DNA of 64,000 bases from a virus. Within the stretch, counting starts at the first letter, position 1, and each line of letters starts with the position of its first letter. A program made the position numbers and the translations under genes. Where the stretch lies: positions 206,182-270,181 of IMG/VR virus record IMGVR_UViG_3300024503_000015. One strand, given 5' to 3'. Below the pieces are notes generated by a model. It did no database searches. It was not told the DNA's origin and was given only the letters and a program-made list of their open reading frames with translations. Positions 18,888 to 61,411 of this stretch are shown in pieces.

Positions 18888-20139
18888 CCTGGTTTTGTGT
18901 GATAGCGTCAGCACGTACCTCAACGATTTTGCCAACCACCTCTTCACGACCGGACCAATAAGCATCGCGATCAGCATCAGTAAAACCGCTACCAACATTA
19001 ACAATGATATCACGTCCATCGTCTCTGCCTTCGCAAACAAAAGCGCCAAGTTTTCCGACATTTTTACCTGTTCCTTCTTCTACTGCTGTAACAGCCAATG
19101 ACACTTCGATAAATGGCTTTAGTTTAAGCCAAGCCACACTACGTTTACATTCATATCCAGCATTAGGATCTTTGATCATAATACCTTCGTAACCGCCATC
19201 GATTGCCTTTTGATTAATTTCTTTGAAACGTTTTTTACCTGCATCAGTATCGAGATCGACAAGTTCGTGTCCAACAACTGCTACATTAGGTAACGCATCT
19301 TTATGTTTCTTGTGCCAGTAGTAGACCATATCGCTACGATCCGATTGGCTTTTATCCCAAGAGCCTTGTTCAAAGTTTGACAAAGGTAGTACGTCAAACA
19401 AATTAAGTACAGCATCATCGCTTTGTACATCACTCTTGCGGTGTACCTGCTTCATCAAATCTTGGAAACTGCTAGACATAACTTCGCCGTCTAGCACCAA
19501 ATCATATGGCGGAGGATCTTGTTTAACTACTGCACTAATCTGCTCTGCTATGTGAGGAAAATTGACAAGCTCTTTGCCGTTACGACTAAACATATCAACA
19601 CGCCCGTCGGCCCTGACGATAGTAATAACTCGTACTCCATCAAGTTTGACTTCGATAAGTTTCTTTCCAACCACCTTAGCCTCATGATTTGCGCTATCGT
19701 GAGCGAGCTGGCAACTAAACACAGGCACACTATAGTGAGCATATTTCTTCTCCACAACTTTGTTGATTGTTTTTTCGCTTACGCCACAACGCAAGTCTTT
19801 AATAAGGATACGACGATACCAGCCATTCCACTGTTTCTTAGTGGCTGACTTTATCATTGTTTGAATCATATCCCTCGCTGTATTACCGGTGACATTGCGA
19901 GTGACAAAGCCAGTAATAGCGAGAGTAAAACTGCCCCAGTCTAAGCCTGGACCGTCTGCATCTGTTTTCTCTGGGATTTGTTTAAGTCCAAAGGTAATCA
20001 TTGGATCTAATGCAAGACGCACACCTTCGAAGAATTCGTTGTTACCTGCCTCCGCTTGTGCAAGAATGATTGCTTCTTTGTTCAAACGACTAGGATGATC
20101 TTCTAGTGTACTAATAACATTTTGGCATGGATCGCTCAC
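18817..20139 (-). CDS. ATP-dependent DNA ligase
   Basis: KxDG adenylation motif in IEVKLDGVRV, plus downstream nucleotidyltransferase and OB-fold motifs. Confidence 0.85.
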   Translation of the reverse strand: MSDPCQNVISTLEDHPSRLNKEAIILAQAEAGNNEFFEGVRLALDPMITFGLKQIPEKTDADGPGLDWGSFTLAITGFVTRNVTGNTARDMIQTMIKSATKKQWNGWYRRILIKDLRCGVSEKTINKVVEKKYAHYSVPVFSCQLAHDSANHEAKVVGKKLIEVKLDGVRVITIVRADGRVDMFSRNGKELVNFPHIAEQISAVVKQDPPPYDLVLDGEVMSSSFQDLMKQVHRKSDVQSDDAVLNLFDVLPLSNFEQGSWDKSQSDRSDMVYYWHKKHKDALPNVAVVGHELVDLDTDAGKKRFKEINQKAIDGGYEGIMIKDPNAGYECKRSVAWLKLKPFIEVSLAVTAVEEGTGKNVGKLGAFVCEGRDDGRDIIVNVGSGFTDADRDAYWSGREEVVGKIVEVRADAITQNQDGSYSLRFPRFLHFRGFQSGEKI

Positions 20140-33616: not shown

Positions 33617-33626
33617 GGAGGGAATT

Positions 33627-33734
33627 TGGTGTGACCGGGAGGGTTCGAACCTCCAAGGACGGCATATCGCCTAGTCCCGACCCACGGAGTGTTTCACAAC
33701 AGTCCTGGAGCTCTGCCTATTCGCTCACGGTCAC
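33627..33734 (-). tRNA. atypical 108 nt tRNA-like gene with ~50 nt structured insert in the anticodon/variable region
   Basis: Perfect acceptor GTGACCG/CGGTCAC, D-arm, T-arm GGAGG-TTCGAAC-CCTCC and CCA. Middle has AGGAC...GTCCT enclosing GNRA-capped hairpins. No canonical anticodon loop. Confidence 0.35.
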
Positions 33735-33765
33735 ATACTAAGTATATAACCTTTTCAGCAGTTTG

Positions 33766-34221
33766 TCAACGGGTTATGAGGTATTCGTAGTTCACTGTGT
33801 TGTCGTTTTCTTGCAACACACAGGCACCATTTCTGATATGGAACTTGTAGGCCATTTCAGTTTTTGGGCTAAGTGTTACAAAACGATTAACAGTTGGGAA
33901 AAGTTCTTTTATTTGATCCACTACACCAAAAAGTAGCTCTGCGGCCGCACCCGGCGCATAACTCCAAATTGTATAGAAGATTGCTGTAGTTGGTTCTGTG
34001 GGTGTTTTAGCCAAATCTTCAACAGTTGTTGGCACAAAATCGTGCAGACTAACACAGACCATTGCACGTGGTTTTTCGCCTTCTACAGTGGTGGCGACAA
34101 ATCTGCTACCGCTAACACGAAATTCTTTGGGAATTTCTGGACGTACTGGATCATCCTTGATATAGTCAAGTAATGGATTAGTAGTTTCTCTGATTAATGT
34201 TAGCATATAACTATTTAGCAT
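33766..34221 (-). CDS. hypothetical protein embedded in tRNA array
   Basis: 151 aa ORF between tRNA genes. Confidence 0.45.
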   Translation of the reverse strand: MLNSYMLTLIRETTNPLLDYIKDDPVRPEIPKEFRVSGSRFVATTVEGEKPRAMVCVSLHDFVPTTVEDLAKTPTEPTTAIFYTIWSYAPGAAAELLFGVVDQIKELFPTVNRFVTLSPKTEMAYKFHIRNGACVLQENDNTVNYEYLITR

Positions 34222-34244
34222 TTAGTGGGCAGATTATGGTGTTA

Positions 34245-34319
34245 TGGTGGTAACGGTGAGATTCGAACTCACACCTTGCTCCGTATGAAGGAGGTGCACG
34301 ACCATTATGCTACGTTACC
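34245..34319 (-). tRNA. tRNA-Met (anticodon CAT; Met or lysidine-Ile not distinguishable)
   Basis: Acceptor GGTAACG/CGTTACC, T-arm GTGAG-TTCGAAT-CTCAC, anticodon loop TTCATAC, CCA. Confidence 0.6.
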
Positions 34320-34858
34320 AGATTATTAGTAAGATGTCCCGAGAGTTTTGGTTTGGGTAAGGCCATCCGACGGTGCGATTCGTCCCTCTCTTTGTCTAGC
34401 CCAACATGAAGTTCTTGTAGTCTCAATCCGCTCACCTTGCACCGGCGCTTGATACATATACTCTACAGCATTAAAGTTTATAACTTCAATTAACAAAAAC
34501 TTCCGATCTTTGTTAACTCCTTGCGGATGCTTTTAGAACCTTAACTACTTACTAATAAAAGGGGTGGAGAGAGAAAGGCAAGTAATAGACTGGACAATGT
34601 ACAAGCGGGCTCTATAAAGATACCCTTAACAAGTCACAAGGCGCAAAGCACAGGGACCTGTATATTTCCAGTTAGCAACTCACAAAGTCGATTAATATAT
34701 AGAACTGGTTCACACAAGCACGAAACGTTTTCAAGACGTTTTGCCAGTAGTTGATGTTCGGTCTCTATAAGAGATCAAACCTTAGGCATGTAGCCTAAGT
34801 CTGTCTATCCTAATCTCCTTCTCTACTCCAGGCTCGGGCTTTCGCCTTTGCCAAAACT

Positions 34859-34932
34859 TGGTTGCGGGACCTGGAATCGAACCAGGATCTAGAGCTTATG
34901 AGACTCTTGAGTTACCGTTTCTCTATCCCGCG
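34859..34932 (-). tRNA. tRNA-Met (anticodon CAT) with C1-A72 mismatch, initiator-like
   Basis: Acceptor CGCGGGA/TCCCGCA with an unpaired 1-72, anticodon stem-loop AGAGT-CTCATAA-GCTCT, T-arm CCTGG-TTCGATT-CCAGG, CCA. Confidence 0.55.
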
Positions 34933-35269
34933 ATAACTTTATAGGTGCTCTCTGTTCGACTCGAACGAAACCTGCTGAGCTCCTTATCTTCCTGGCACTT
35001 TCGGTGGGTAGTCGACTTAGCACCTAACTCGTGTTATCCAGTGTAGTTCAGCTCAGAGAGCATTTATAAAGTGTCTAGCCACTCCCACCACAGGAGCCCT
35101 AAACCGAGCTGTTACTCTGTCCACTAGCCTTTCCATTTAGACGGTGCTGAGGTCCGCCTTTGTGATTTCTCAAGTCGCTTTAAACAAGCCTTGCGGTAGA
35201 TCCAATGCACCGAGCCATTAAGGTGTAGCAATTACCTAACTCTATCACGCTGAGTTAACGCGGGGTCTG

Positions 35270-35842
35270 TTACAGTAAACCTTCTGCTTGCAGAACTGCT
35301 TCTGTTTTGTCAGACAATTGGATAGTTGTCTGAACATTTAACTCTAGGATTTCATCCTGAAGTTTTTGTTTCTGCTTTTTAGCAGTTGCCACTCTACGAC
35401 GGAATCCGTCTAGATCTTCACGAGTGAGCACACTAGTGTCTACTGTGTCGTTGTAGCCATAGATGCTACGACGGTTTTCGCTTTTGTCGTTACGGATCTT
35501 GTCCAAACGACCTGCTACAACCTTTGCGCTTTCGCGAACGGTCTTACTAGCCAATCCGTTGTAGAATTGGATTTGTTTTTCTAGATGTGCAACATCGGCC
35601 AATCTAGTGTCGATTCTAACTTCTGTGTTAGCACCGCTGACACTTTTACGAATCTCGTAAAGTGCTTCCACTAACGCATCTCTGCGTGTAAGGTTGTCGC
35701 AGAGTGTTCCTGCAACTTTGGAAATTTCTTGTTCCGCTTCTTGGAACTCGTTGATTTTTACTGTGGTCTCAAACTGGAAACCTTTGACGGTATCGTTGAT
35801 ACTGTTCTGAAGTGCATTTGCCTTACGTAGGGAGATATTCAT
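35270..35842 (-). CDS. hypothetical coiled-coil protein
   Basis: Trimmed to ATG 35842 so it does not overlap tRNA-Gly. Confidence 0.45.
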   Translation of the reverse strand: MNISLRKANALQNSINDTVKGFQFETTVKINEFQEAEQEISKVAGTLCDNLTRRDALVEALYEIRKSVSGANTEVRIDTRLADVAHLEKQIQFYNGLASKTVRESAKVVAGRLDKIRNDKSENRRSIYGYNDTVDTSVLTREDLDGFRRRVATAKKQKQKLQDEILELNVQTTIQLSDKTEAVLQAEGLL

Positions 35843-35908
35843 TTGTTTTTCCTTTAATGTTTCTATTATACAATCTTTTAAATCTAAATCAATGCCTTTT
35901 GGCAAAAC

Positions 35909-35984
35909 TGGAGCGGGAGACGAGGTTCGAACTCGCGACATTTACCTTGGCAAGGTAATGCTCTACCAACTGAGCTACTCCCGC
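35909..35984 (-). tRNA. tRNA-Gly (GCC)
   Basis: GCGGGAG/CTCCCGC, D-arm GCTCAGTTGGTAGAGC, anticodon TTACC-TTGCCAA-GGTAA, CCA. Confidence 0.7.
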
Positions 35985-37426: not shown

Positions 37427-37564
37427 AAATTCTATTCTGAAACACACTAACCAACTACCAGAAGCATTTATAATGCCGTTATTCGGTTCGAGCTAATGTG
37501 TTTTAGAATAGTGCTAACGCTGAGATTATACGTTAGCCAATAGTGCCTCTAGCATTATAGTCAG

Positions 37565-37798
37565 CCTTGCGAGCCAACCTTCTCTAGACATCCACATAAG
37601 CCATTACTGTACCTATGTCCACTATCAGCATCGCCGTTTTTAAAGACAGGCAGTAGTCTTGTCGCCATATGCTATTCTACGCTATCTACTCCGTTGACCT
37701 TGCGAGCCATTCAGCGGCGCTAACCACTTACGAAACTTCCAGCATAAACAGATTTCACCTTGCGAGCTACGTCTGACTCGATTACCTTGCGGCTCGAG
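37565..37798. repeat. four dispersed copies of CCTTGCGAGC(C) motif in an ORF-free spacer
   Basis: Copies at 37565, 37698, 37758 and 37785. Related CCTTGCGG copies at 34521, 35180 and 38183. Confidence 0.5.
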
Positions 37799-37844
37799 TA
37801 TTAGATGCTTTTCACATATGACCGAGGCAGTCTTTGCATTTTAT

Positions 37845-37916
37845 AATCGATAGTTGGGATCGAACCAACAGTCCATTGCTTAAGAGGCAATTGCGTTACC
37901 ATTACGCTATATCAAA
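37845..37916 (-). tRNA. tRNA-Lys (CTT)
   Basis: Anticodon ATTGC-CTCTTAA-GCAAT, T-arm GTTGG-TTCGATC-CCAAC. No encoded CCA. First acceptor pair weak. Confidence 0.55.
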
Positions 37917-38566
37917 CCTACCGCGATGAGCTGCCTCTGTTGCTCAATAACCTTTTGGATTACTGAATACAACTCACCACATACCTTTTGTCTCGCGGAC
38001 TACTCAGTGATATTTCACGATCAATGTCCTGCATCAAAACAGTCCACTAACCATTAATATTGCATACAAGCCCTTAGGAGCGACCCCTTGGACAAATACA
38101 CTACCCTTTCTCATACCAATTCGCAAGTTGGTTTTGTTAGGAAGTCAGCACCACCCGTTACTTTTCATGCACCCTGGTTCCCTTGCGGGCCAGTCGATAC
38201 ACATTCTTTCCCTAACACTTGCTTCATTGTTACATCCACCGGTCTTCTCAGTGAACGCTACCTCGCGGTAGTGAGCAGGCTTGTTTACATGAACCATTAC
38301 TGGCGGAGTTGCGTAGGCTTACCTCCTTTGGGTTGATCACTCAACTTATTCTTCGTCAACGGCGAACCGCCAACAGGATAATAAACTACCCTTAAATTTT
38401 TACCATTAAAAAATAACATTACACCCTATGGGATGAAACGTATTTCTGAGTGGAGTTCGATTCTCCTCATAAGCCATTGTTCACGGTTTTCTCAGAAGGG
38501 TAAGATGGCCTTATCCTTCATAAGTCTATGCGTCCATAGACGATACCCGTCAATGCTATTTCTTAA

Positions 38567-38652: not shown

Positions 38653-38739
38653 ATATCTGCTTGAAATTTTTAAAGAACTAGGTTAATTTCTTAACTAGTC
38701 TCTATTGTATATGAACTTTAGAAACTAGTCAAGACATTT

Positions 38740-39647: not shown

Positions 39648-39873
39648 ACAGATTGAATTTGTAAGTAGTTGCCCCATCGTTATAGCAACCATTCACCCAT
39701 GTATATAAAGCCGGCTGGGACTCGGTACGTCACTTGGGATACTAGTCCAGTTAGCAACCAATCTGCAGGGATCTTCCGATCCCCCGGGAGTTGAACCCGT
39801 CCCCTTTTACTATTAAGGTAGTTCGAACTTACCTACAATAGCGTGACATTCTCTTGCTGACACTTACAAAACT

Positions 39874-39946: not shown

Positions 39947-39953
39947 GCAAAAT

Positions 39954-40031
39954 TGGTCTCCACGGTACGATTCGAACGTACAGCCTCCTGACTCCAGATC
40001 AGGCCGTCTACCAGATTGACATTACGCAGAG
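39954..40031 (-). tRNA. tRNA of uncertain identity (loop TCTGGAG, C at position 33)
   Basis: Good acceptor CTCTGCG/CGTGGAG and T-arm GTACG-TTCGAAT-CGTAC with CCA. Anticodon loop is non-canonical. Confidence 0.35.
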
Positions 40032-40041
40032 ATAAAAATAA

Positions 40042-40117
40042 TTGCGACCGAAGGACTCGAACCTTCGCGGTAATCTAGAATGCCCCGGCAAGGCCGGTTA
40101 ACCCACCATTGTCGCAA
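40042..40117 (-). tRNA. tRNA-like element whose anticodon arm is replaced by a 5 bp/3 nt hairpin
   Basis: Perfect acceptor TTGCGAC/GTCGCAA, D-arm and T-arm CGAAGG-TTCGAGT-CCTTCG. Middle CCGGC-CTT-GCCGG hairpin. No CCA. Confidence 0.35.
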
Positions 40118-40120
40118 ATT

Positions 40121-40195
40121 TGGTGGAGGCCGAGGAAATCGAATCCTTCTAGACATCTTCCTTGCAAGGGAAGACCGTAGCCCACTACTGCCCCC
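40121..40195 (-). tRNA. tRNA-Ala-like (TGC) with truncated D-arm and degenerate T-arm
   Basis: Anticodon CTTCC-CTTGCAA-GGAAG, T-loop TTCGATT with a stem mismatch, D region only 12 nt, CCA. Confidence 0.35.
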
Positions 40196-40280
40196 AAATT
40201 GGTGTTAGTTTCTATACCACCCATTGAAACTAACAAACATTGAGAGAACATGGATGAACCCACAAGATCTCTATTTGCTC

Positions 40281-40771: not shown

Positions 40772-40942
40772 TTGTACGTATTGATTTGATTTTACGTGCC
40801 AACCCTAGACCATACGGGAGATCTAGAGTGACACTAACGTTTAGCACGTTTCATGCTACTCTCCTTTTAATATTTTTTCAAAACTTGATACAACACGAAC
40901 ATTATAACTAACACTACAAGTACTGCCATAATATTCTCCTTA

Positions 40943-46321: not shown

Positions 46322-46395
46322 TGGTGCGCTAGACAGGAATCGAACCTGCTATCGGGAGTTTAGAAGTCCCTGCCTATCCATTGAGCTTCAAGCGC
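46322..46395 (-). tRNA. isolated tRNA, best fold gives anticodon CTA (amber-suppressor-like); alternative register TCT
   Basis: Acceptor GCGCTTG/CTAGCGC, T-arm GCAGG-TTCGATT-CCTGT, CCA. Anticodon stem GGGA/TCCC with loop TTCTAAA. Confidence 0.4.
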
Positions 46396-52027: not shown

Positions 52028-52104
52028 GTGATCTTTCTATGAAATAAAACTGCGATACTGTGTATTATAGGCTCGGACAGGGCATCTGTCAATGTGTTTG
52101 GTAA

Positions 52105-52135
52105 AATAAAAAAGGGCCCGAAGGCCCTTTGGTTG
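52105..52135 (-). terminator. rho-independent terminator (second copy of GGGCCCGAAGGCCC hairpin)
   Basis: Hairpin followed by TTTTTTATTTT on the minus strand. Confidence 0.55.
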
Positions 52136-52395
52136 TTTGGGTTACAAGGTAAGTCCTACCCCGGAGTTGCAGTTTCTTAGGCTGCTACTAGACCATTGTC
52201 GGCTGTGAAGCCTTCAACAGTGAAGTACTCAAATGTAGATGCGTTTGCATTTACTAGTTTTGCTTGATTTACGGTCATCGCCTACCGTGTTGCCGTCTCT
52301 ACTATCTACCCCTGTCGAAACCATGGCAGGCCCATCATAAAAACACAATACCAAAGTAAATTTACAATGAATACCAAAGTAAATTTATGTCCTTA

Positions 52396-52435
52396 TGGTG
52401 GACCTGGCGGGAGTCGAACCCGCGTCCAGAAGTCC
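52396..52435 (-). other. tRNA 3'-half-like minihelix (T-arm + acceptor + CCA) lacking D and anticodon arms
   Basis: GCGGG-TTCGACT-CCCGC T-arm, then CAGGTCC-A-CCA, with a complementary GGACTTC only 5 nt upstream. Confidence 0.3.
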
Positions 52436-52463
52436 TTCGCTTTGAAGGGATTACAACAATTCT

Positions 52464-53042
52464 TTAAACGCCTGCCTTTGCTAATGTGCCAAATATCCAA
52501 GGTTTTGGATCTAAGTCAATTGTCCAAGATGTCGGTTCATTTCTCATATCTTTTTTGTACACAATATTTATTTGGTCGTGTGTTAGTTTGACTAAGAAGC
52601 CGTCTGTTAATTGTTTTAGATTAGCCTTAACTGTTGCGTAATCTACAAAGGCAACAGCGAATGTTCCTTTAATTTGGACTATCATTAAATGATTAAAAAC
52701 TTTGTCTAGTGTAGTTCTTTGATTCTTACTTTCGTAAACATTTTTTAATTTAAGACTGATTGTCTTTTTAGGAGTTCCTGACTTTGCGTAGAACAAAGGT
52801 TCGTTGCCAGTTTTAACTTCTACGTCGCCATTGGTCCAATCGGTAAATTTTATATCGTAATCGCGAACGTCAGTCCACTCGATGTTCTTTTTATGATTAG
52901 ATAATTGCATTGCCGCAATAATGAATTTTTCTTTCATCATTCGATTTGTGGATTCATTTAATACTGTCTGATGACAGATGTTATTACAAGCATCTGAAAA
53001 CTTGTCAATATCTACCCAATCTAAAAATTCATTGTACTGCAT
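52464..53042 (-). CDS. hypothetical protein
   Basis: 192 aa ORF. Confidence 0.5.
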   Translation of the reverse strand: MQYNEFLDWVDIDKFSDACNNICHQTVLNESTNRMMKEKFIIAAMQLSNHKKNIEWTDVRDYDIKFTDWTNGDVEVKTGNEPLFYAKSGTPKKTISLKLKNVYESKNQRTTLDKVFNHLMIVQIKGTFAVAFVDYATVKANLKQLTDGFLVKLTHDQINIVYKKDMRNEPTSWTIDLDPKPWIFGTLAKAGV

Positions 53043-58826: not shown

Positions 58827-60878
58827 TTATTTTTCATGTGCTATGAATTCACCATTCCAATTATCTGGAAGGTTCTGTTCTTTCATAAACTCGCAACGTT
58901 CAATCCAGATTTTGTAGTACTTGTCCATTTGTCCACCAAAGTTGCCTTTTAGTTTTTTACACATAGCGGCTGCTTCGTCGAACTTCTTTTGTTTATACAA
59001 GGCATGCATCAACTCGTGCTGTACTTTATCTTTACTGTAATCTTCACCTTTGGTTCTTAATGCTGTATAGATTAAGTCTGCTACAGTTTTGCCTTTAGGT
59101 TGTAAGTTATCTAGCATTAGATAGAAGAAGTCATCTTTAGTACGGTTGTAAGTTTCAGCACCGATGATACATAACACGCCATAGGCCTTACAACGTGCTT
59201 CTAAACGAGCGGCGGTTGAAACCATGTCACCTAAGATGTCGTAACTATGTCTGTCAGTTGATCCCATCTCACCAATAAAGCCAATACCTGAGTTACAACC
59301 CCAACCCATTGCGGCTGGTGGTAAGCCTTGTGCTTCCATTAGTTTAGTATACTCATCAACAGCATCTAACATCTGTAAACCAACAGCAACAATAGTACGG
59401 GCATGATTAGGATCTTCAATCGGAGCACCGTGTATGTGCATACTTGCGTCACCTACATACTTTATGACCATACCCTTGTTGTCCATGATAGGCTGACTAA
59501 TAGCATCCATGTAACCGTTCATATACTTGCCTAATCCAGCAACATCATCACCGTAGTGTTCTCCAATGGGTGTAAAGCCACGCAAGTCACTGAACATAAC
59601 GGATACGTCTTTACGCACACCACGCTTGATTAGGTCTGGATCTTTTTGTAGCATTTCTACTACTTCCTTACTACAGTATCCAGCGAACTGTTTCTTAATT
59701 GCCTGTTTCTGTAAAAACTCGCTTATAAACTTAACGCCATAACAATGAAGAGCAACGATAATAAGGCCAAACGCGATCGCAGTCGCGTCTCCCAAGACGA
59801 GCCAATTATTGAAAGCGTAGATAGTACCAGGAACGATGGCACCAACAATAACCACAGTAGCACCAATGCCAACATAAGTCCACCTCGATAAGAAAATTAA
59901 TAATATGCCAAGTGATACTAATGCTAAAATTTCAACCCCGTCGGCATAGTCGGGACGTTGAATAACAATGCCGTTAACCATTGTACCAATTACTGCGGCC
60001 TGCACTTCGTGAGGAAATACAGCACCTTTGCTTGTCGGTAACGGATTACTAATACCAGCGGCAGTAGGACCTACAATAACGACGGCGCCACCTAAATCTT
60101 TTGGAAGTTTAACAGCACTAACGCTATGAGCTTCTTGGCTCCAATCGATCCAAATTCTTCCTAAACTATCTGTAGCAATAGGACCAAACTTTGGAATACG
60201 CATTTTCTCAACGCCGCCTTCAAAAAGTTTTACTTGGAAGGTAGAGTCTCCTGCGGCGACTCTAAGTGTCTCTAAACTCAATGCTGGATATAATTTGCCG
60301 TCTACAGTAACAATTAACGGCATGCGGCGATTAACACCATCTACTTCTGGAAGTGTTCCTGTAATGCCAACACCTGCGGCATTTTGTTCTAGTTGAGGAA
60401 CGTTGGCGATTAGTCCCGGGTATTGAATAATTTGATCTAGATGTTCTGGACCTAGTACAGCCGATCCTGGAACACGTGGTGTATTCTTTGTTTTCTGTGC
60501 TGGCGCACTTCCTAGTACTACAGGGAACTCTTTTAGAGTTTGTCCTAGCGCACCATCTCCACCAGTACGATCTGTCTCTGGCATAAGAACATTAAGTACA
60601 ACAAGTCCTGCATTTCTTTGGTATAGTTCCTTCACAAGTTTAGCATATTCTGCTCTTGGTAAGGGCCACTGACCATATTTGTCTAACGTGGCTTCGTCGA
60701 TATTTACAGTAACTATGTTGTTAACTGTAACTTCTTTACTTGTAATTAATGTGTCAAAATAACGTAGTCTTACGCTTTCAACAAATGTAGGATCTGCAAC
60801 TCTGACACCAACAACTAGTGCTAGAGTTAGTAAAGCAGTCCATGGACTTACTAGTATTTTTTTGAATTGTATTTTCAT
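58827..60878 (-). CDS. CHASE2 sensor domain fused to class III adenylate/guanylate cyclase
   Basis: N-terminal transmembrane plus periplasmic CHASE2-like region and further transmembrane helices. Cyclase core FSDLRGFTPIGE...GDASMHIHG. Extra C-terminal ~100 aa. Confidence 0.8.
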   Translation of the reverse strand: MKIQFKKILVSPWTALLTLALVVGVRVADPTFVESVRLRYFDTLITSKEVTVNNIVTVNIDEATLDKYGQWPLPRAEYAKLVKELYQRNAGLVVLNVLMPETDRTGGDGALGQTLKEFPVVLGSAPAQKTKNTPRVPGSAVLGPEHLDQIIQYPGLIANVPQLEQNAAGVGITGTLPEVDGVNRRMPLIVTVDGKLYPALSLETLRVAAGDSTFQVKLFEGGVEKMRIPKFGPIATDSLGRIWIDWSQEAHSVSAVKLPKDLGGAVVIVGPTAAGISNPLPTSKGAVFPHEVQAAVIGTMVNGIVIQRPDYADGVEILALVSLGILLIFLSRWTYVGIGATVVIVGAIVPGTIYAFNNWLVLGDATAIAFGLIIVALHCYGVKFISEFLQKQAIKKQFAGYCSKEVVEMLQKDPDLIKRGVRKDVSVMFSDLRGFTPIGEHYGDDVAGLGKYMNGYMDAISQPIMDNKGMVIKYVGDASMHIHGAPIEDPNHARTIVAVGLQMLDAVDEYTKLMEAQGLPPAAMGWGCNSGIGFIGEMGSTDRHSYDILGDMVSTAARLEARCKAYGVLCIIGAETYNRTKDDFFYLMLDNLQPKGKTVADLIYTALRTKGEDYSKDKVQHELMHALYKQKKFDEAAAMCKKLKGNFGGQMDKYYKIWIERCEFMKEQNLPDNWNGEFIAHEK

Positions 60879-61411
60879 TTTTTAAATCCTGGCTTTGGTA
60901 AGTGGTTGCGGCCGTAACTAATTCTACTGCCTATAATTTGTTCTAATGCTGTATGTAAGGCTTGTCCTGATAAATGTTTACGCAACCATTTTTCTGCTAA
61001 GTTGTTAATAATCTTTTCATTAGCGTGTGCAAAGCCGCCTTTACTTTTAGCGTGTACATAAGCGTGATATGCTTCGTGGGCCGCAACAGCAACGTCTCGT
61101 GCCGCGGTGCTGTCTAGATTTGGTAAGTTGATACTGCCAACGCCGTCGCCTGTATCCCTAAACATTGGATCTCCGCTACTCTGGTAGACATAATACATTC
61201 CAGGACCTAATTCGTCATCATCGTCAGTTACTCTATCTCTACCTAGAATATTTCTAACTACATCATATGCTGTCCAAAGCGTGGCTGCAGGTTCTCTGCT
61301 TAATTTTGTAGTTGGAAGCATTATTTTATCTTCAGGATCGAAGTCACCATATCTTGCTTTTAAATCGGCGTCACTTGCTTCTGCTTCTTTTATAAATTCT
61401 TTTGCTCTCAT
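60875..61411 (-). CDS. putative HExxH zinc metallopeptidase
   Basis: AAHEAYHAYVH motif. Start trimmed to MRAKEF. Confidence 0.4.
   Translation of the reverse strand: MRAKEFIKEAEASDADLKARYGDFDPEDKIMLPTTKLSREPAATLWTAYDVVRNILGRDRVTDDDDELGPGMYYVYQSSGDPMFRDTGDGVGSINLPNLDSTAARDVAVAAHEAYHAYVHAKSKGGFAHANEKIINNLAEKWLRKHLSGQALHTALEQIIGSRISYGRNHLPKPGFKK

Follow-up and report, generated by a model that had tools for sequence, protein, structure and literature searches.

Organization of the region

Positions 34330–35270 of the 64-kb window, the whole stretch of DNA analysed here from an uncultured huge freshwater phage, lie inside a transfer RNA (tRNA) array and hold one tRNA-Met together with four discrete RNA families supported by covariation, designated RNA A, RNA B, RNA C and RNA D (Table 1). 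All four are encoded on the strand of the tRNAs, which is the minus strand for all 32 tRNA genes and for the transfer-messenger RNA (tmRNA) found in the window with ARAGORN. A preliminary description of the sequence had pictured about 940 nt of ORF-free, hairpin-rich DNA between two tRNAs and had proposed that it might contain one or more structured non-coding RNAs, and the latter proposal is borne out. As regards the boundaries, the left one is indeed a tRNA-Met; position 35270 on the right, however, is the stop codon of an open reading frame (ORF) of 223 aa, and the first tRNA beyond that edge starts at 35909. No ORF of at least 60 aa is present on either strand inside 34330–35270, as had been stated, the longest being of 56 aa (34326–34496, minus strand) and 44 aa, and no conserved ORF was found within 34320–35270. 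The single CAT tRNA recognised earlier inside the region is confirmed by both ARAGORN and Rfam as a tRNA-Met(CAU) on the minus strand; it scores 60.0 bits with the Rfam tRNA model, in which its first acceptor pair is flagged as non-canonical.

Conservation and modular order in related phages

Altogether 111 related phage loci were fetched through two flanking proteins, with extra loci from pattern scans, and the region was compared with these relatives (IMG/VR contigs of up to 400 kb) by blastn and nhmmer; the census of copies covered 307 sources and 2.5 Mb. It is clear that the region is not the poorly conserved spacer that would have spoken against the preliminary proposal, since 56 to 143 distinct copies of each RNA are conserved. 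On uncultured phage contigs the census counted 143 distinct copies of RNA A (by its core), 106 of RNA B, 81 of RNA C and 56 of RNA D. The region splits into units that recur separately and in shuffled order, and every flanking tRNA is on the same strand as the unit beside it (164/164 for RNA A, 130/130 for RNA B, 93/93 for RNA C and 84/84 for RNA D; 471/471 in total). Spacers of 0–6 nt to the tRNAs are common, chiefly for RNA B and RNA D, and the units are often as close to tRNAs as tRNAs are to one another; for example, RNA B is found 2 nt from a tRNA-Ser on one side and 2 nt from a tRNA-Asp on the other, and RNA D at −1 nt from a tRNA-Met and 3 nt from a tRNA-Arg. RNA A immediately precedes RNA B in 67 of the 106 copies of the latter, and A-(B)-tRNA-Met is a recurrent unit in the relatives.

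This modular order bears on the idea that the whole 0.94 kb might be one giant ornate RNA with an embedded tRNA, similar to the GOLLD RNA present elsewhere in the window, RNAs A to D being its domains. The parts form an unbroken series of constant order in the window as well as in its nearest relatives (L002, L001 and L004), with no promoter or terminator between them; furthermore, the GOLLD of the same window carries an embedded tRNA-Lys, and all four copies of CCGCAAGG, the RNA form of a repeated octamer considered below, lie in RNA A, RNA D and GOLLD. In most relatives, however, the parts are apart, reordered or single. Locus L006 has RNA C, then 679 nt, then RNA A; RNA B stands alone between two tRNAs in L124 and L048, and RNA D alone beside tRNAs in L131 and L124. 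Moreover, every part closes on its own terminal helix, and the sole covarying helix between parts is a short flank helix at the junction of RNA A and RNA B. A single giant RNA is accordingly improbable; the four RNAs, each closed by a helix of its own, are separate units of evolution.

Secondary structures of RNA A, RNA C and RNA D

The helices were defined by hand, aided by a custom covariation scan; RNAalifold on raw MAFFT alignments recovered the structures only in part. The percentage of paired cells was compared with that in shuffles, and the covariation score with that of slid partners. Compensatory covariation in related phages, which had been suggested earlier as a check, supports all four RNAs, and the secondary structure of each is maintained by compensatory substitutions on the tRNA strand.

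RNA A opens with an H-type pseudoknot (X1/Y1), which is followed by a second one (X2/Y2) and by a middle domain composed of Z1, Z2/Z3 and Z5, where pseudoknot X3 joins the loop of Z5 to the linker. In a MAFFT alignment of 17 type-1 homologues (A7), 90.4% of the cells are paired versus 78.0% in shuffles, changes on both sides are seen in 26 of 50 pairs, and covariation amounts to 0.366 as compared with at most 0.084 for slid partners. The middle domain is replaced in other lineages; the 5' pseudoknots and the 3' core are retained. Within this core (A2 core), the stem GUCUA/UAGAC changes to GUCCG/CGGAC, GUUUU/AAAAC or GUCUG/CAGAC, and a second stem, CUCC/GGAG, to CUCA/UGAG, CCUA/UAGG or CUUC/GAAG. 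A pairing of the 5' GGAC with GUCU was compatible with the data, but it was dropped because compensatory changes exist only for the pairing with the 3' UAGAC. The A2 core was also considered as a self-cleaving ribozyme of the hepatitis delta virus (HDV)-like or another type and was rejected, its pairing scheme being mismatched and an Rfam match absent. When the window was scanned for complements of conserved loops as possible targets in trans, only two perfect 10-nt complements, AGAUCCAAUG, of the invariant RNA A loop CAUUGGAUCU turned up (61163–61172 and 19999–20008 (−); about 0.06 expected). Both lie inside coding sequence reading Asp-Pro-Met and are probably a coincidence.

RNA D consists of a closing helix P1 of about 16 bp, a long-range helix PA, and P2, which encloses P3 (a GNRA hairpin, CC-GCAA-GG), P4 (loop CGGAA) and P5; P6, P8 and P9 complete the nested set. 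There are two pseudoknot helices as well: the loop of P9 supplies the 3' strand of P7, and P10 cuts across P8. A relaxed search pattern gave 30 matches and a stricter one 2, and covariance model R1, built from 16 sequences, found 36 copies, 29 of them distinct. With the pseudoknots included, 87.4% of cells are paired versus 62.8% in shuffles, and both partners have changed in 63 of 72 pairs, with a covariation of 0.671 versus at most 0.124 for slid partners. Neither pseudoknot helix is part of the covariance model; P10 is 89% paired with double changes in four of its five pairs, and P7 is 90% paired. The order of the pseudoknots is similar to that of a group I intron, an assignment that was discarded since sizes and motifs do not fit and Rfam is negative. 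RNA D also carries an invariant motif, AACCAAAAC, complementary to the sequence AGUUU(U)G that often forms the tRNA 3' trailer past the CCA in this phage group (L053, L003, L041 and others; 34852–34858 in the window). This trailer may be a shared processing signal.

RNA C comprises a 5' hairpin S1, a long closing helix S2, the helix S3 (AUAGAC/GUCUAU), hairpins S4 to S6 and the nested S7/S8. In the MAFFT alignment A6 of 18 sequences, pairing reaches 82.9% versus 69.6% in shuffles, both sides change in 42 of 54 pairs, and covariation is 0.446 versus at most 0.166; the helices supported on A6 are S1 to S4 and S6 to S8. The two hairpins named in the preliminary description are both present, the second as TCTCT-ATA-AGAGA (34762–34774), and they proved to be minor elements of RNA C. 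The first, CTTAGGC-ATGTA-GCCTAAG, is S4, which varies in a compensatory manner among relatives (CUAAGGC/GCCUUAG, CUUUGGC/GCCAAAG, CUAUGGC/GCCAUAG, UUGUGGC/GCCGCAA). The second belongs to S5, which is present in the window, L002, L004, L068, L037 and L005 and cleanly deleted in L001, L006, L007 and others. The T-T-G columns of the UUG repeats in RNA C are invariant in A6, and the covariation scan found no consistent pairing partner for these repeats. Two further pairings of RNA C were dropped, S0 at the 5' end (UUUUG/CAAAA) because it overlaps S6 and its columns are mostly invariant, and S9 (AGGCC/GGCUU) because it conflicts with the better-supported S7. Neither was RNA C accepted as an RNase P RNA: GAGGAUAGAC resembles GAGGAAAGUC, but the helix is nested, the other conserved regions are absent and Rfam is negative.

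The preliminary description had also pointed to copies of CCTTGCGG in the region, and two are present, one in RNA D and one in RNA A. The whole window contains four, all on the plus strand, where 0.74 are expected, and four were reached by one of 100 shuffles. All four sit within structured RNAs on one strand; as CCGCAAGG, the sequence forms the covarying GNRA hairpin of RNA D, and in RNA A it is part of two other helices.

Selection on a transcript of the tRNA strand

In contrast to the covariation, the impression that the region is dense in hairpins found no thermodynamic support. Compared with dinucleotide shuffles, the 951-nt region gave z-scores of −0.99 (minus strand) and −1.30 (plus strand); it folds no better than shuffles, and "hairpin-rich" therefore carries no statistical signal on its own. 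RNA B folded alone gave z = 0.09, and with values of about −1 and 0.09 minimum-free-energy folding is uninformative here. It is by its conservation and covariation among relatives that the region stands out from chance, not by folding energy.

None of the four RNAs encodes a protein, as stop codons break all six frames in nearly all homologues, and three-base periodicity is absent from RNA C and RNA D. In paired columns read on the minus strand, G.U occurs 461 times and A.C 91 times (about 5:1). Hence what is under selection is a transcript from the strand of the tRNAs. The asymmetry of G.U and A.C also bears on the alternative that the region contains signals at the level of DNA, such as a replication origin, a packaging site or an operator array, with hairpins and palindromes serving as protein-binding or cruciform sites. 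Perfect inverted repeats and the lack of ORFs would be in keeping with such signals, as would the resemblance of the loop palindromes of RNA B (see below) to the restriction sites GTCGAC, TCTAGA, ACCGGT and CTGCAG. A signal in duplex DNA, however, would show no asymmetry, whereas G.U is tolerated five times more than A.C and on one strand only; long-range and pseudoknot helices covary, the orientation relative to the 471 flanking tRNAs is invariant, and the RNA B palindrome is always in the apical loop of a covarying hairpin. Such DNA-level signals are thus very improbable.

RNA B, a tRNA-like RNA with a palindromic loop

RNA B carries, next to its acceptor stem, a T-arm with a 4-bp stem and the loop UUCGAGU in the window (UUCGAUU also among the copies). 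The place of the D-arm is taken by a 7-bp helix, H2, 1–2 nt past the acceptor stem (2 nt in most copies), and helices H3 to H5 form one long arm with a conserved 3' bulge, GGAAGAUAAGGAG (GGAAGAUAMGGAG across homologues). In the structure-blind MAFFT alignment A4 of 36 sequences, 97.3% of cells are paired versus 84.8% in shuffles, both sides change in 23 of 30 pairs, and covariation is 0.415 versus at most 0.064. Covariance model R2 found 68 copies in 100 sources, and a second subtype has a variant T-arm. Nine contigs of bacterial metagenome-assembled genomes that matched an RNA B pattern were dismissed as chance matches, none of them scoring with the covariance model.

It is evident that RNA B is not a canonical tRNA, as ARAGORN and the Rfam tRNA model RF00005 are silent on 34944–35061 even at E up to 10, and the covariation-supported fold has neither a D-arm nor a 7-nt anticodon loop. 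It does possess a 12-bp coaxial acceptor/T-arm stack (8 + 4 bp, both stems covarying) with a UUCRA T-loop. Other matches of its model in the window at E < 0.1 are weak and fall only on tRNA-like sequences (four annotated tRNAs and 40121–40197, an unannotated site with a weak acceptor/T-arm match), and these cross-matches to tRNAs run through the acceptor stem and T-arm only. In the modelled fold, RNA B mimics only the "top half" of a tRNA, namely the 12-bp acceptor/T-arm stack. No CCA is encoded; the window reads ACC-U past the stem, and the copies have ACC or CUC, the CUC-ending copies arguing against aminoacylation. The flank pairs around RNA B hold in about 75–80% of 49 copies with compensatory changes, for instance CCAUAAGAAA/UUUCUUAUGG in L042.

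A perfect palindrome of 6–10 nt occurs in all 19 distinct apical loops among the 68 copies, its sequence differing by lineage (AGUCGACU, GUCGAC, ACCGGU, UUCUAGAA, UCUAGA, UUCUGCAGAA). The mean longest palindrome in these loops is 7.4 nt versus 2.6 nt in shuffled loops, and predicted self-duplex energies range from −6.6 to −14.5 kcal/mol. Judged from these sequences, the palindromic loop most likely mediates a kissing-loop homodimer of RNA B with a tRNA-like head at either end, because the palindrome is invariably in the loop though its sequence varies, and is too short for pairing within one loop. A change of the loop from AGUCGACU to AGUCCACU would then abolish the dimer. The loop is comparable to the dimerization initiation site (DIS) of HIV-1, with which it shares a self-complementary stretch of at least 6 nt in a hairpin loop, flanked by unpaired purines (CUA-AGUCGACU-AAC), that differs in sequence by lineage while self-complementarity is retained. 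The HIV-1 DIS, however, is an element of a retroviral genome, whereas RNA B is a phage tRNA-like RNA and its dimer is putative.

Among RNAs with tRNA-like parts, the tRNA-like domain of tmRNA has the same topology as RNA B, that is, acceptor stem, short linker, a long helix where the anticodon arm would be, T-arm and acceptor 3' strand, with no D-stem. The linker of RNA B is only 1–2 nt, however, and is not an analogue of a D-loop; U-A is found at position 3/70 in 36/36 sequences instead of the alanine identity pair G3.U70; and, unlike tmRNA, RNA B has no tag reading frame (stops occur in all frames) and no pseudoknot. The tmRNA models of ARAGORN and Rfam do not call it. Imitation of the tRNA elbow and acceptor by other transcripts is known from the module of YrlA, a bacterial Y RNA, and from plant mitochondrial t-elements, both of which are recognised by tRNA-processing or -modifying enzymes. 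A loop closes the tRNA-like part of YrlA, whose RNA ends make up the Ro-binding stem, whereas the ends of RNA B are its own acceptor stem, and Rfam gave no YrlA match for the region. The t-elements, in turn, are parts of mRNAs, unlike RNA B.

Comparison with known RNA families

The Rfam scan proposed in the preliminary description was run on 34200–35400 (Rfam 15, permissive filters, E up to 10) and returned only two tRNAs and three matches of chance level (15 to 16 bits). RNAs A to D match no Rfam 15 family, including ROOL, HEARO, raiA, OLE, RNase P, 6S, signal recognition particle RNA, Y RNA, riboswitches, group I and II introns and self-cleaving ribozymes (HDV-like, hammerhead, twister), and twelve related loci yielded only tRNAs and GOLLD at the Rfam gathering thresholds. 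A blastn search of the region against INPHARED (50,697 cultured-phage records) found nothing, and the exact pattern of the RNA A core, present in at least 120 metagenome contigs, is missing from 185,579 genomes representing bacterial and archaeal species, as is the motif tested for RNA B. No description of RNAs A to D was found in the searchable literature, a search that did not extend to the 8,495 unnamed candidates of the IMG/VR structured-RNA catalogue (PMC10690425). Structured RNAs in phage tRNA arrays are a known kind; the folds of RNAs A to D and the tRNA mimic with a palindromic loop appear to be new.

The earlier suggestion of intron remnants is not supported. In its wider form it would regard the elements as what degeneration has left of self-splicing introns, mobile elements or decayed tRNA genes, retained by linkage only. 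Introns and homing endonucleases are indeed known from phage tRNA regions, as exemplified by SegB in the T4 tRNA cluster, and RNA B, with its T-arm and acceptor stem, may descend from a tRNA gene. Neither a group I or II intron nor any other Rfam match was obtained at E up to 10, however; the elements lie between genes and are not inserted in them, have their own terminal helices and contain no endonuclease ORF. Compensatory changes and invariant loop nucleotides over 56 to 143 diverged copies indicate purifying selection on the folds, not decay, and an origin as mere remnants is scarcely credible.

The closest systems are found among RNAs of phage tRNA clusters. The T4 species 1 and 2 RNAs are excised from a tRNA precursor by host enzymes. 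These small stable RNAs, encoded by rnaC and rnaD, end the phage tRNA cluster on the tRNA strand, following tRNA-Arg in the order rnaD, rnaC with spacers of 1 nt and 6 nt (T4 annotation); RNAs A to D share with them the strand and the tRNA-like spacing. T4 rnaC resembles RNA B in having a canonical T-arm beside a terminal stem, in which the 5' end is paired with the 3' end, and an enlarged interior, but it scores only 7.6 bits (E = 8.5) with the RNA B model, and rnaD does not match at all, so that the relation is one of analogy, not homology. RNA B differs from the T4 RNAs in its 8 + 4 bp acceptor/T stack, three-way junction and palindromic apical loop, and RNAs A, C and D are larger than they are, RNAs A and D being pseudoknotted as well.

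GOLLD and ROOL are phage RNAs encoded near tRNA islands that self-assemble into homo-oligomers (PMC12286853). Like RNAs A to D they were found by covariation, and they are large, ornate and pseudoknotted RNAs of phages or prophages; GOLLD accompanies RNAs A to D both in the window and in relatives. Nevertheless, the GOLLD model RF02032, which describes the conserved 3' domain, gave no match within 34200–35400 at E up to 10, while the same model recognises the GOLLD of the window. RNAs A to D, with 118 to 294 nt, are much shorter than ROOL (about 600 nt) and GOLLD (more than 800 nt), and the only motif seen in common with GOLLD is the CC-GCAA-GG hairpin sequence. As for oligomerization, it is proposed here for RNA B only, by way of a simple kissing loop.

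Transcription, processing and possible function

On the minus strand, no sigma-70-like promoter was found between 35865 and 33769, the nearest upstream being at 35892–35865, and no convincing terminator was found inside the region. Promoter-like sites in general number 29, about double the 16.5 of shuffles. The sole terminator-like match is S4, which was rejected as an intrinsic terminator since its tail, GUUUGAUCUC, has no U-tract and the hairpin sits inside the covarying S2 and S3. A TGnTATAAT-type promoter motif occurs immediately 5' of RNA C in many relatives.

The region is likely to be a cluster of four independent structured non-coding RNA genes (A to D) plus one tRNA-Met, whose stable products share a transcript with the tRNAs and are cut out of it by the host enzymes of tRNA processing. 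RNA A, RNA B, tRNA-Met, RNA C, RNA D and the next tRNA-Met would form one polycistronic precursor, which is proposed because neither an internal promoter nor a convincing terminator is seen and the spacing is tRNA-like. Wherever RNase P cut a downstream tRNA at its 5' terminus, or cut at RNA B, the 3' end of the RNA in front would be fixed; the 5' ends would arise as the 3' trailer left by the upstream tRNA is processed. The excised RNAs would then accumulate as stable species acting in trans. By analogy, the route of release may be that of the T4 species 1 and 2 RNAs, GOLLD holding a comparable place in phage tRNA islands. The earlier term "sRNAs" understates RNAs A, C and D, multi-helix folds of 196 to 294 nt, of which A and D have pseudoknots.

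Several points weigh against this reading. The folding energy of the whole region is indistinguishable from that of shuffles, and the transcription, processing sites and stability of RNAs A to D are all deduced from sequence. RNA C has its own TGnTATAAT promoter-like motif in some relatives, and co-transcription with tRNAs is therefore not obligatory. About half of the RNA B copies have CUC instead of ACC after the acceptor stem, and the RNA B palindrome could in principle be a protein-binding site in DNA. The alignment of RNA D was fitted to its nested structure, which inflates the pair counts of the nested helices but not those of the pseudoknots. Finally, the relatives were gathered by sequence similarity and represent one phage lineage, and the copy counts are not independent events.

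The preliminary description had also mentioned processing signals, which is plausible for the tRNA-like RNA B but not for the rest. Extended to the whole region, the idea would be that the elements act only in cis, as folding, processing or punctuation signals ("t-elements") or as stabilisers of tRNA precursor maturation, and are idle once excised. The modules do adjoin tRNAs, RNA B has the acceptor/T-arm half of the tRNA fold, the target of RNase P and of enzymes for 3' processing, the flank helix around it looks like a processing stem, and tRNA-like t-elements that define RNA ends are known from plant mitochondria. RNAs A, C and D, however, measure 196 to 294 nt, have as many as 12 helices as well as pseudoknots, and keep dozens of unpaired nucleotides invariant, which goes far beyond the needs of punctuation, and the other tRNAs of the same array manage at distances of 1 to 10 nt without such elements. 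Besides, RNA C often has its own promoter-like motif and lies far from any tRNA, and the lineage-variable palindrome of RNA B has no role in processing in cis. A function in cis only is hence rather unlikely.

As for what stable, independent RNAs might do, the pseudoknotted conserved cores modelled for RNAs A, C and D point to RNA-only or RNA-protein machines and not to antisense regulators, and the company of tRNAs, tmRNA and GOLLD suggests a role, during infection, in translation or in the metabolism of tRNA. It may tentatively be speculated that the tRNA islands of huge freshwater phages encode a set of undescribed RNA machines. RNA B would be a two-headed tRNA mimic, composed of two molecules held together by the kissing loop, that tethers or sequesters proteins binding the acceptor/T-arm, and RNAs A, C and D would represent new classes of pseudoknotted RNA-only assembly, or of ribozyme, with tRNA or translation as their target during infection. 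Candidate targets of RNA B would in that case be RNase P, the CCA-adding enzyme, EF-Tu and host defence nucleases that target tRNA.

Neighbouring genes and other RNAs of the window

An RNA C copy lies within about 1 kb of the gene for the 223-aa protein in nearly all loci fetched through this protein (L005–L032), either upstream or downstream depending on the locus, and the protein may be a partner of RNA C or simply syntenic with it. Pfam and PHROGs scans of the flanking proteins of 223, 151 and 267 aa revealed no informative function. Other genes of the window typical of large phages encode a DNA ligase, a subtilase and a CHASE2-cyclase.

GOLLD is full-length, and the 586 nt upstream of its match (37981–38566), conserved in 53 related loci, are probably its variable 5' half. 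Several tRNA-free stretches of the array (39648–39873, 40772–40942, 33617–33765, 38653–38739 and 39949–40280) have DNA conserved in 22 to 41 related loci and probably hold further undescribed RNA modules. The tRNA with the anticodon CUA may point to recoding of stop codons.

Table 1. Features of the region 34330–35270 and of the remaining window
Feature	Position	Strand	Remarks
RNA A, about 196 nt	35071–35266	minus	Three pseudoknots; begins 3 nt past the stop codon of the 223-aa ORF
A2 core, invariant 3' domain of RNA A	35071–35123	minus	GGACAGAGUAACAGCUC-GGUUUAGGGCUCC-UGUGGUG-GGAGUGGCUAGACAC
Flank helix around RNA B, 5' strand	35065–35071	minus	CUUUAUA; extends the acceptor stem in the precursor
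RNA B, about 118 nt, tRNA-like	34944–35061	minus	8-bp acceptor stem GCUCUCUG/CAGAGAGC; three-way junction
Palindrome in apical loop of RNA B	35010–35017	minus	AGUCGACU; putative kissing-loop dimerization site
Flank helix around RNA B, 3' strand	34937–34943	minus	UAUAAAG; partner of CUUUAUA
tRNA-Met(CAU)	34859–34932	minus	C1xA72 mismatch, initiator-like; CCA encoded; ARAGORN
RNA C, about 294 nt	34565–34858	minus	Starts straight after the CCA of tRNA-Met
RNA C helix S4	34781–34799	minus	First hairpin of the preliminary description; CUUAGGC-UACAU-GCCUAAG in RNA
RNA C helix S5, optional hairpin	34753–34778	minus	Contains the hairpin first given as TCTCT-ATAA-GAGA
Start of conserved stretch of RNA C	34629–34655	minus	Unpaired in the model; UUG every 7 nt, CCCUGUGCUUUGCGCCUUGUGACUUGU; two further UUG downstream
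RNA D, about 236 nt	34323–34558	minus	12 helices, two pseudoknots; stops 3 nt short of the next tRNA-Met
tRNA-Met(CAU), G1-C72 pair	34245–34319	minus	Downstream limit of the cluster; ARAGORN, Rfam 62.6 bits
CCTTGCGG copies (CCGCAAGG in RNA)	34519–34526; 35189–35196; 37785–37792 and 38181–38188	plus	In RNA D; in RNA A; in GOLLD
Gene for 223-aa protein	35270–35941	minus	
GOLLD RNA	37517–37980	minus	RF02032, 207 bits; 2.5 kb from the region
tRNA-Lys(CUU)	37844–37917	minus	Embedded in GOLLD
Weak extra tRNA	39958–40030	minus	RF00005, 31.6 bits, barely over threshold; missed by ARAGORN and the window-wide Rfam scan
tRNA, anticodon CUA, amber suppressor	46322–46395	minus	ARAGORN label tRNA-Pyl; apart from the main array
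tmRNA, phage-encoded	52086–52549	minus	Circularly permuted (two-piece); tag ANASTFEYFTVEGFTADNGLVAA; ARAGORN; Rfam tmRNA_permuted and beta_tmRNA
ORF with CHASE2 sensor domain fused to adenylate/guanylate cyclase domain	58827–60878	minus	
Perfect sigma-70 consensus promoters	41984–41956; 33540–33512	minus	TTGACA, 17 nt, TATAAT; tRNA strand; the first is upstream of the array start

Significance

Phage tRNA islands are already known for GOLLD and ROOL, enigmatic RNAs that form RNA-only nanocages. To the same niche the window adds four unrelated conserved RNA folds, situated near GOLLD and in the same window as a tmRNA, and their sizes of 118 to 294 nt suit direct structural and biochemical work. 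If the RNAs are processing punctuation only, they would still explain the maturation of long mixed arrays. Should they instead have an effect on tRNA processing, translation or anti-phage defence, a new approach would open up to the question of how host translation is taken over by huge phages. The finding suggests that tRNA islands are general depots of phage RNA machines and not only patches of codon usage.

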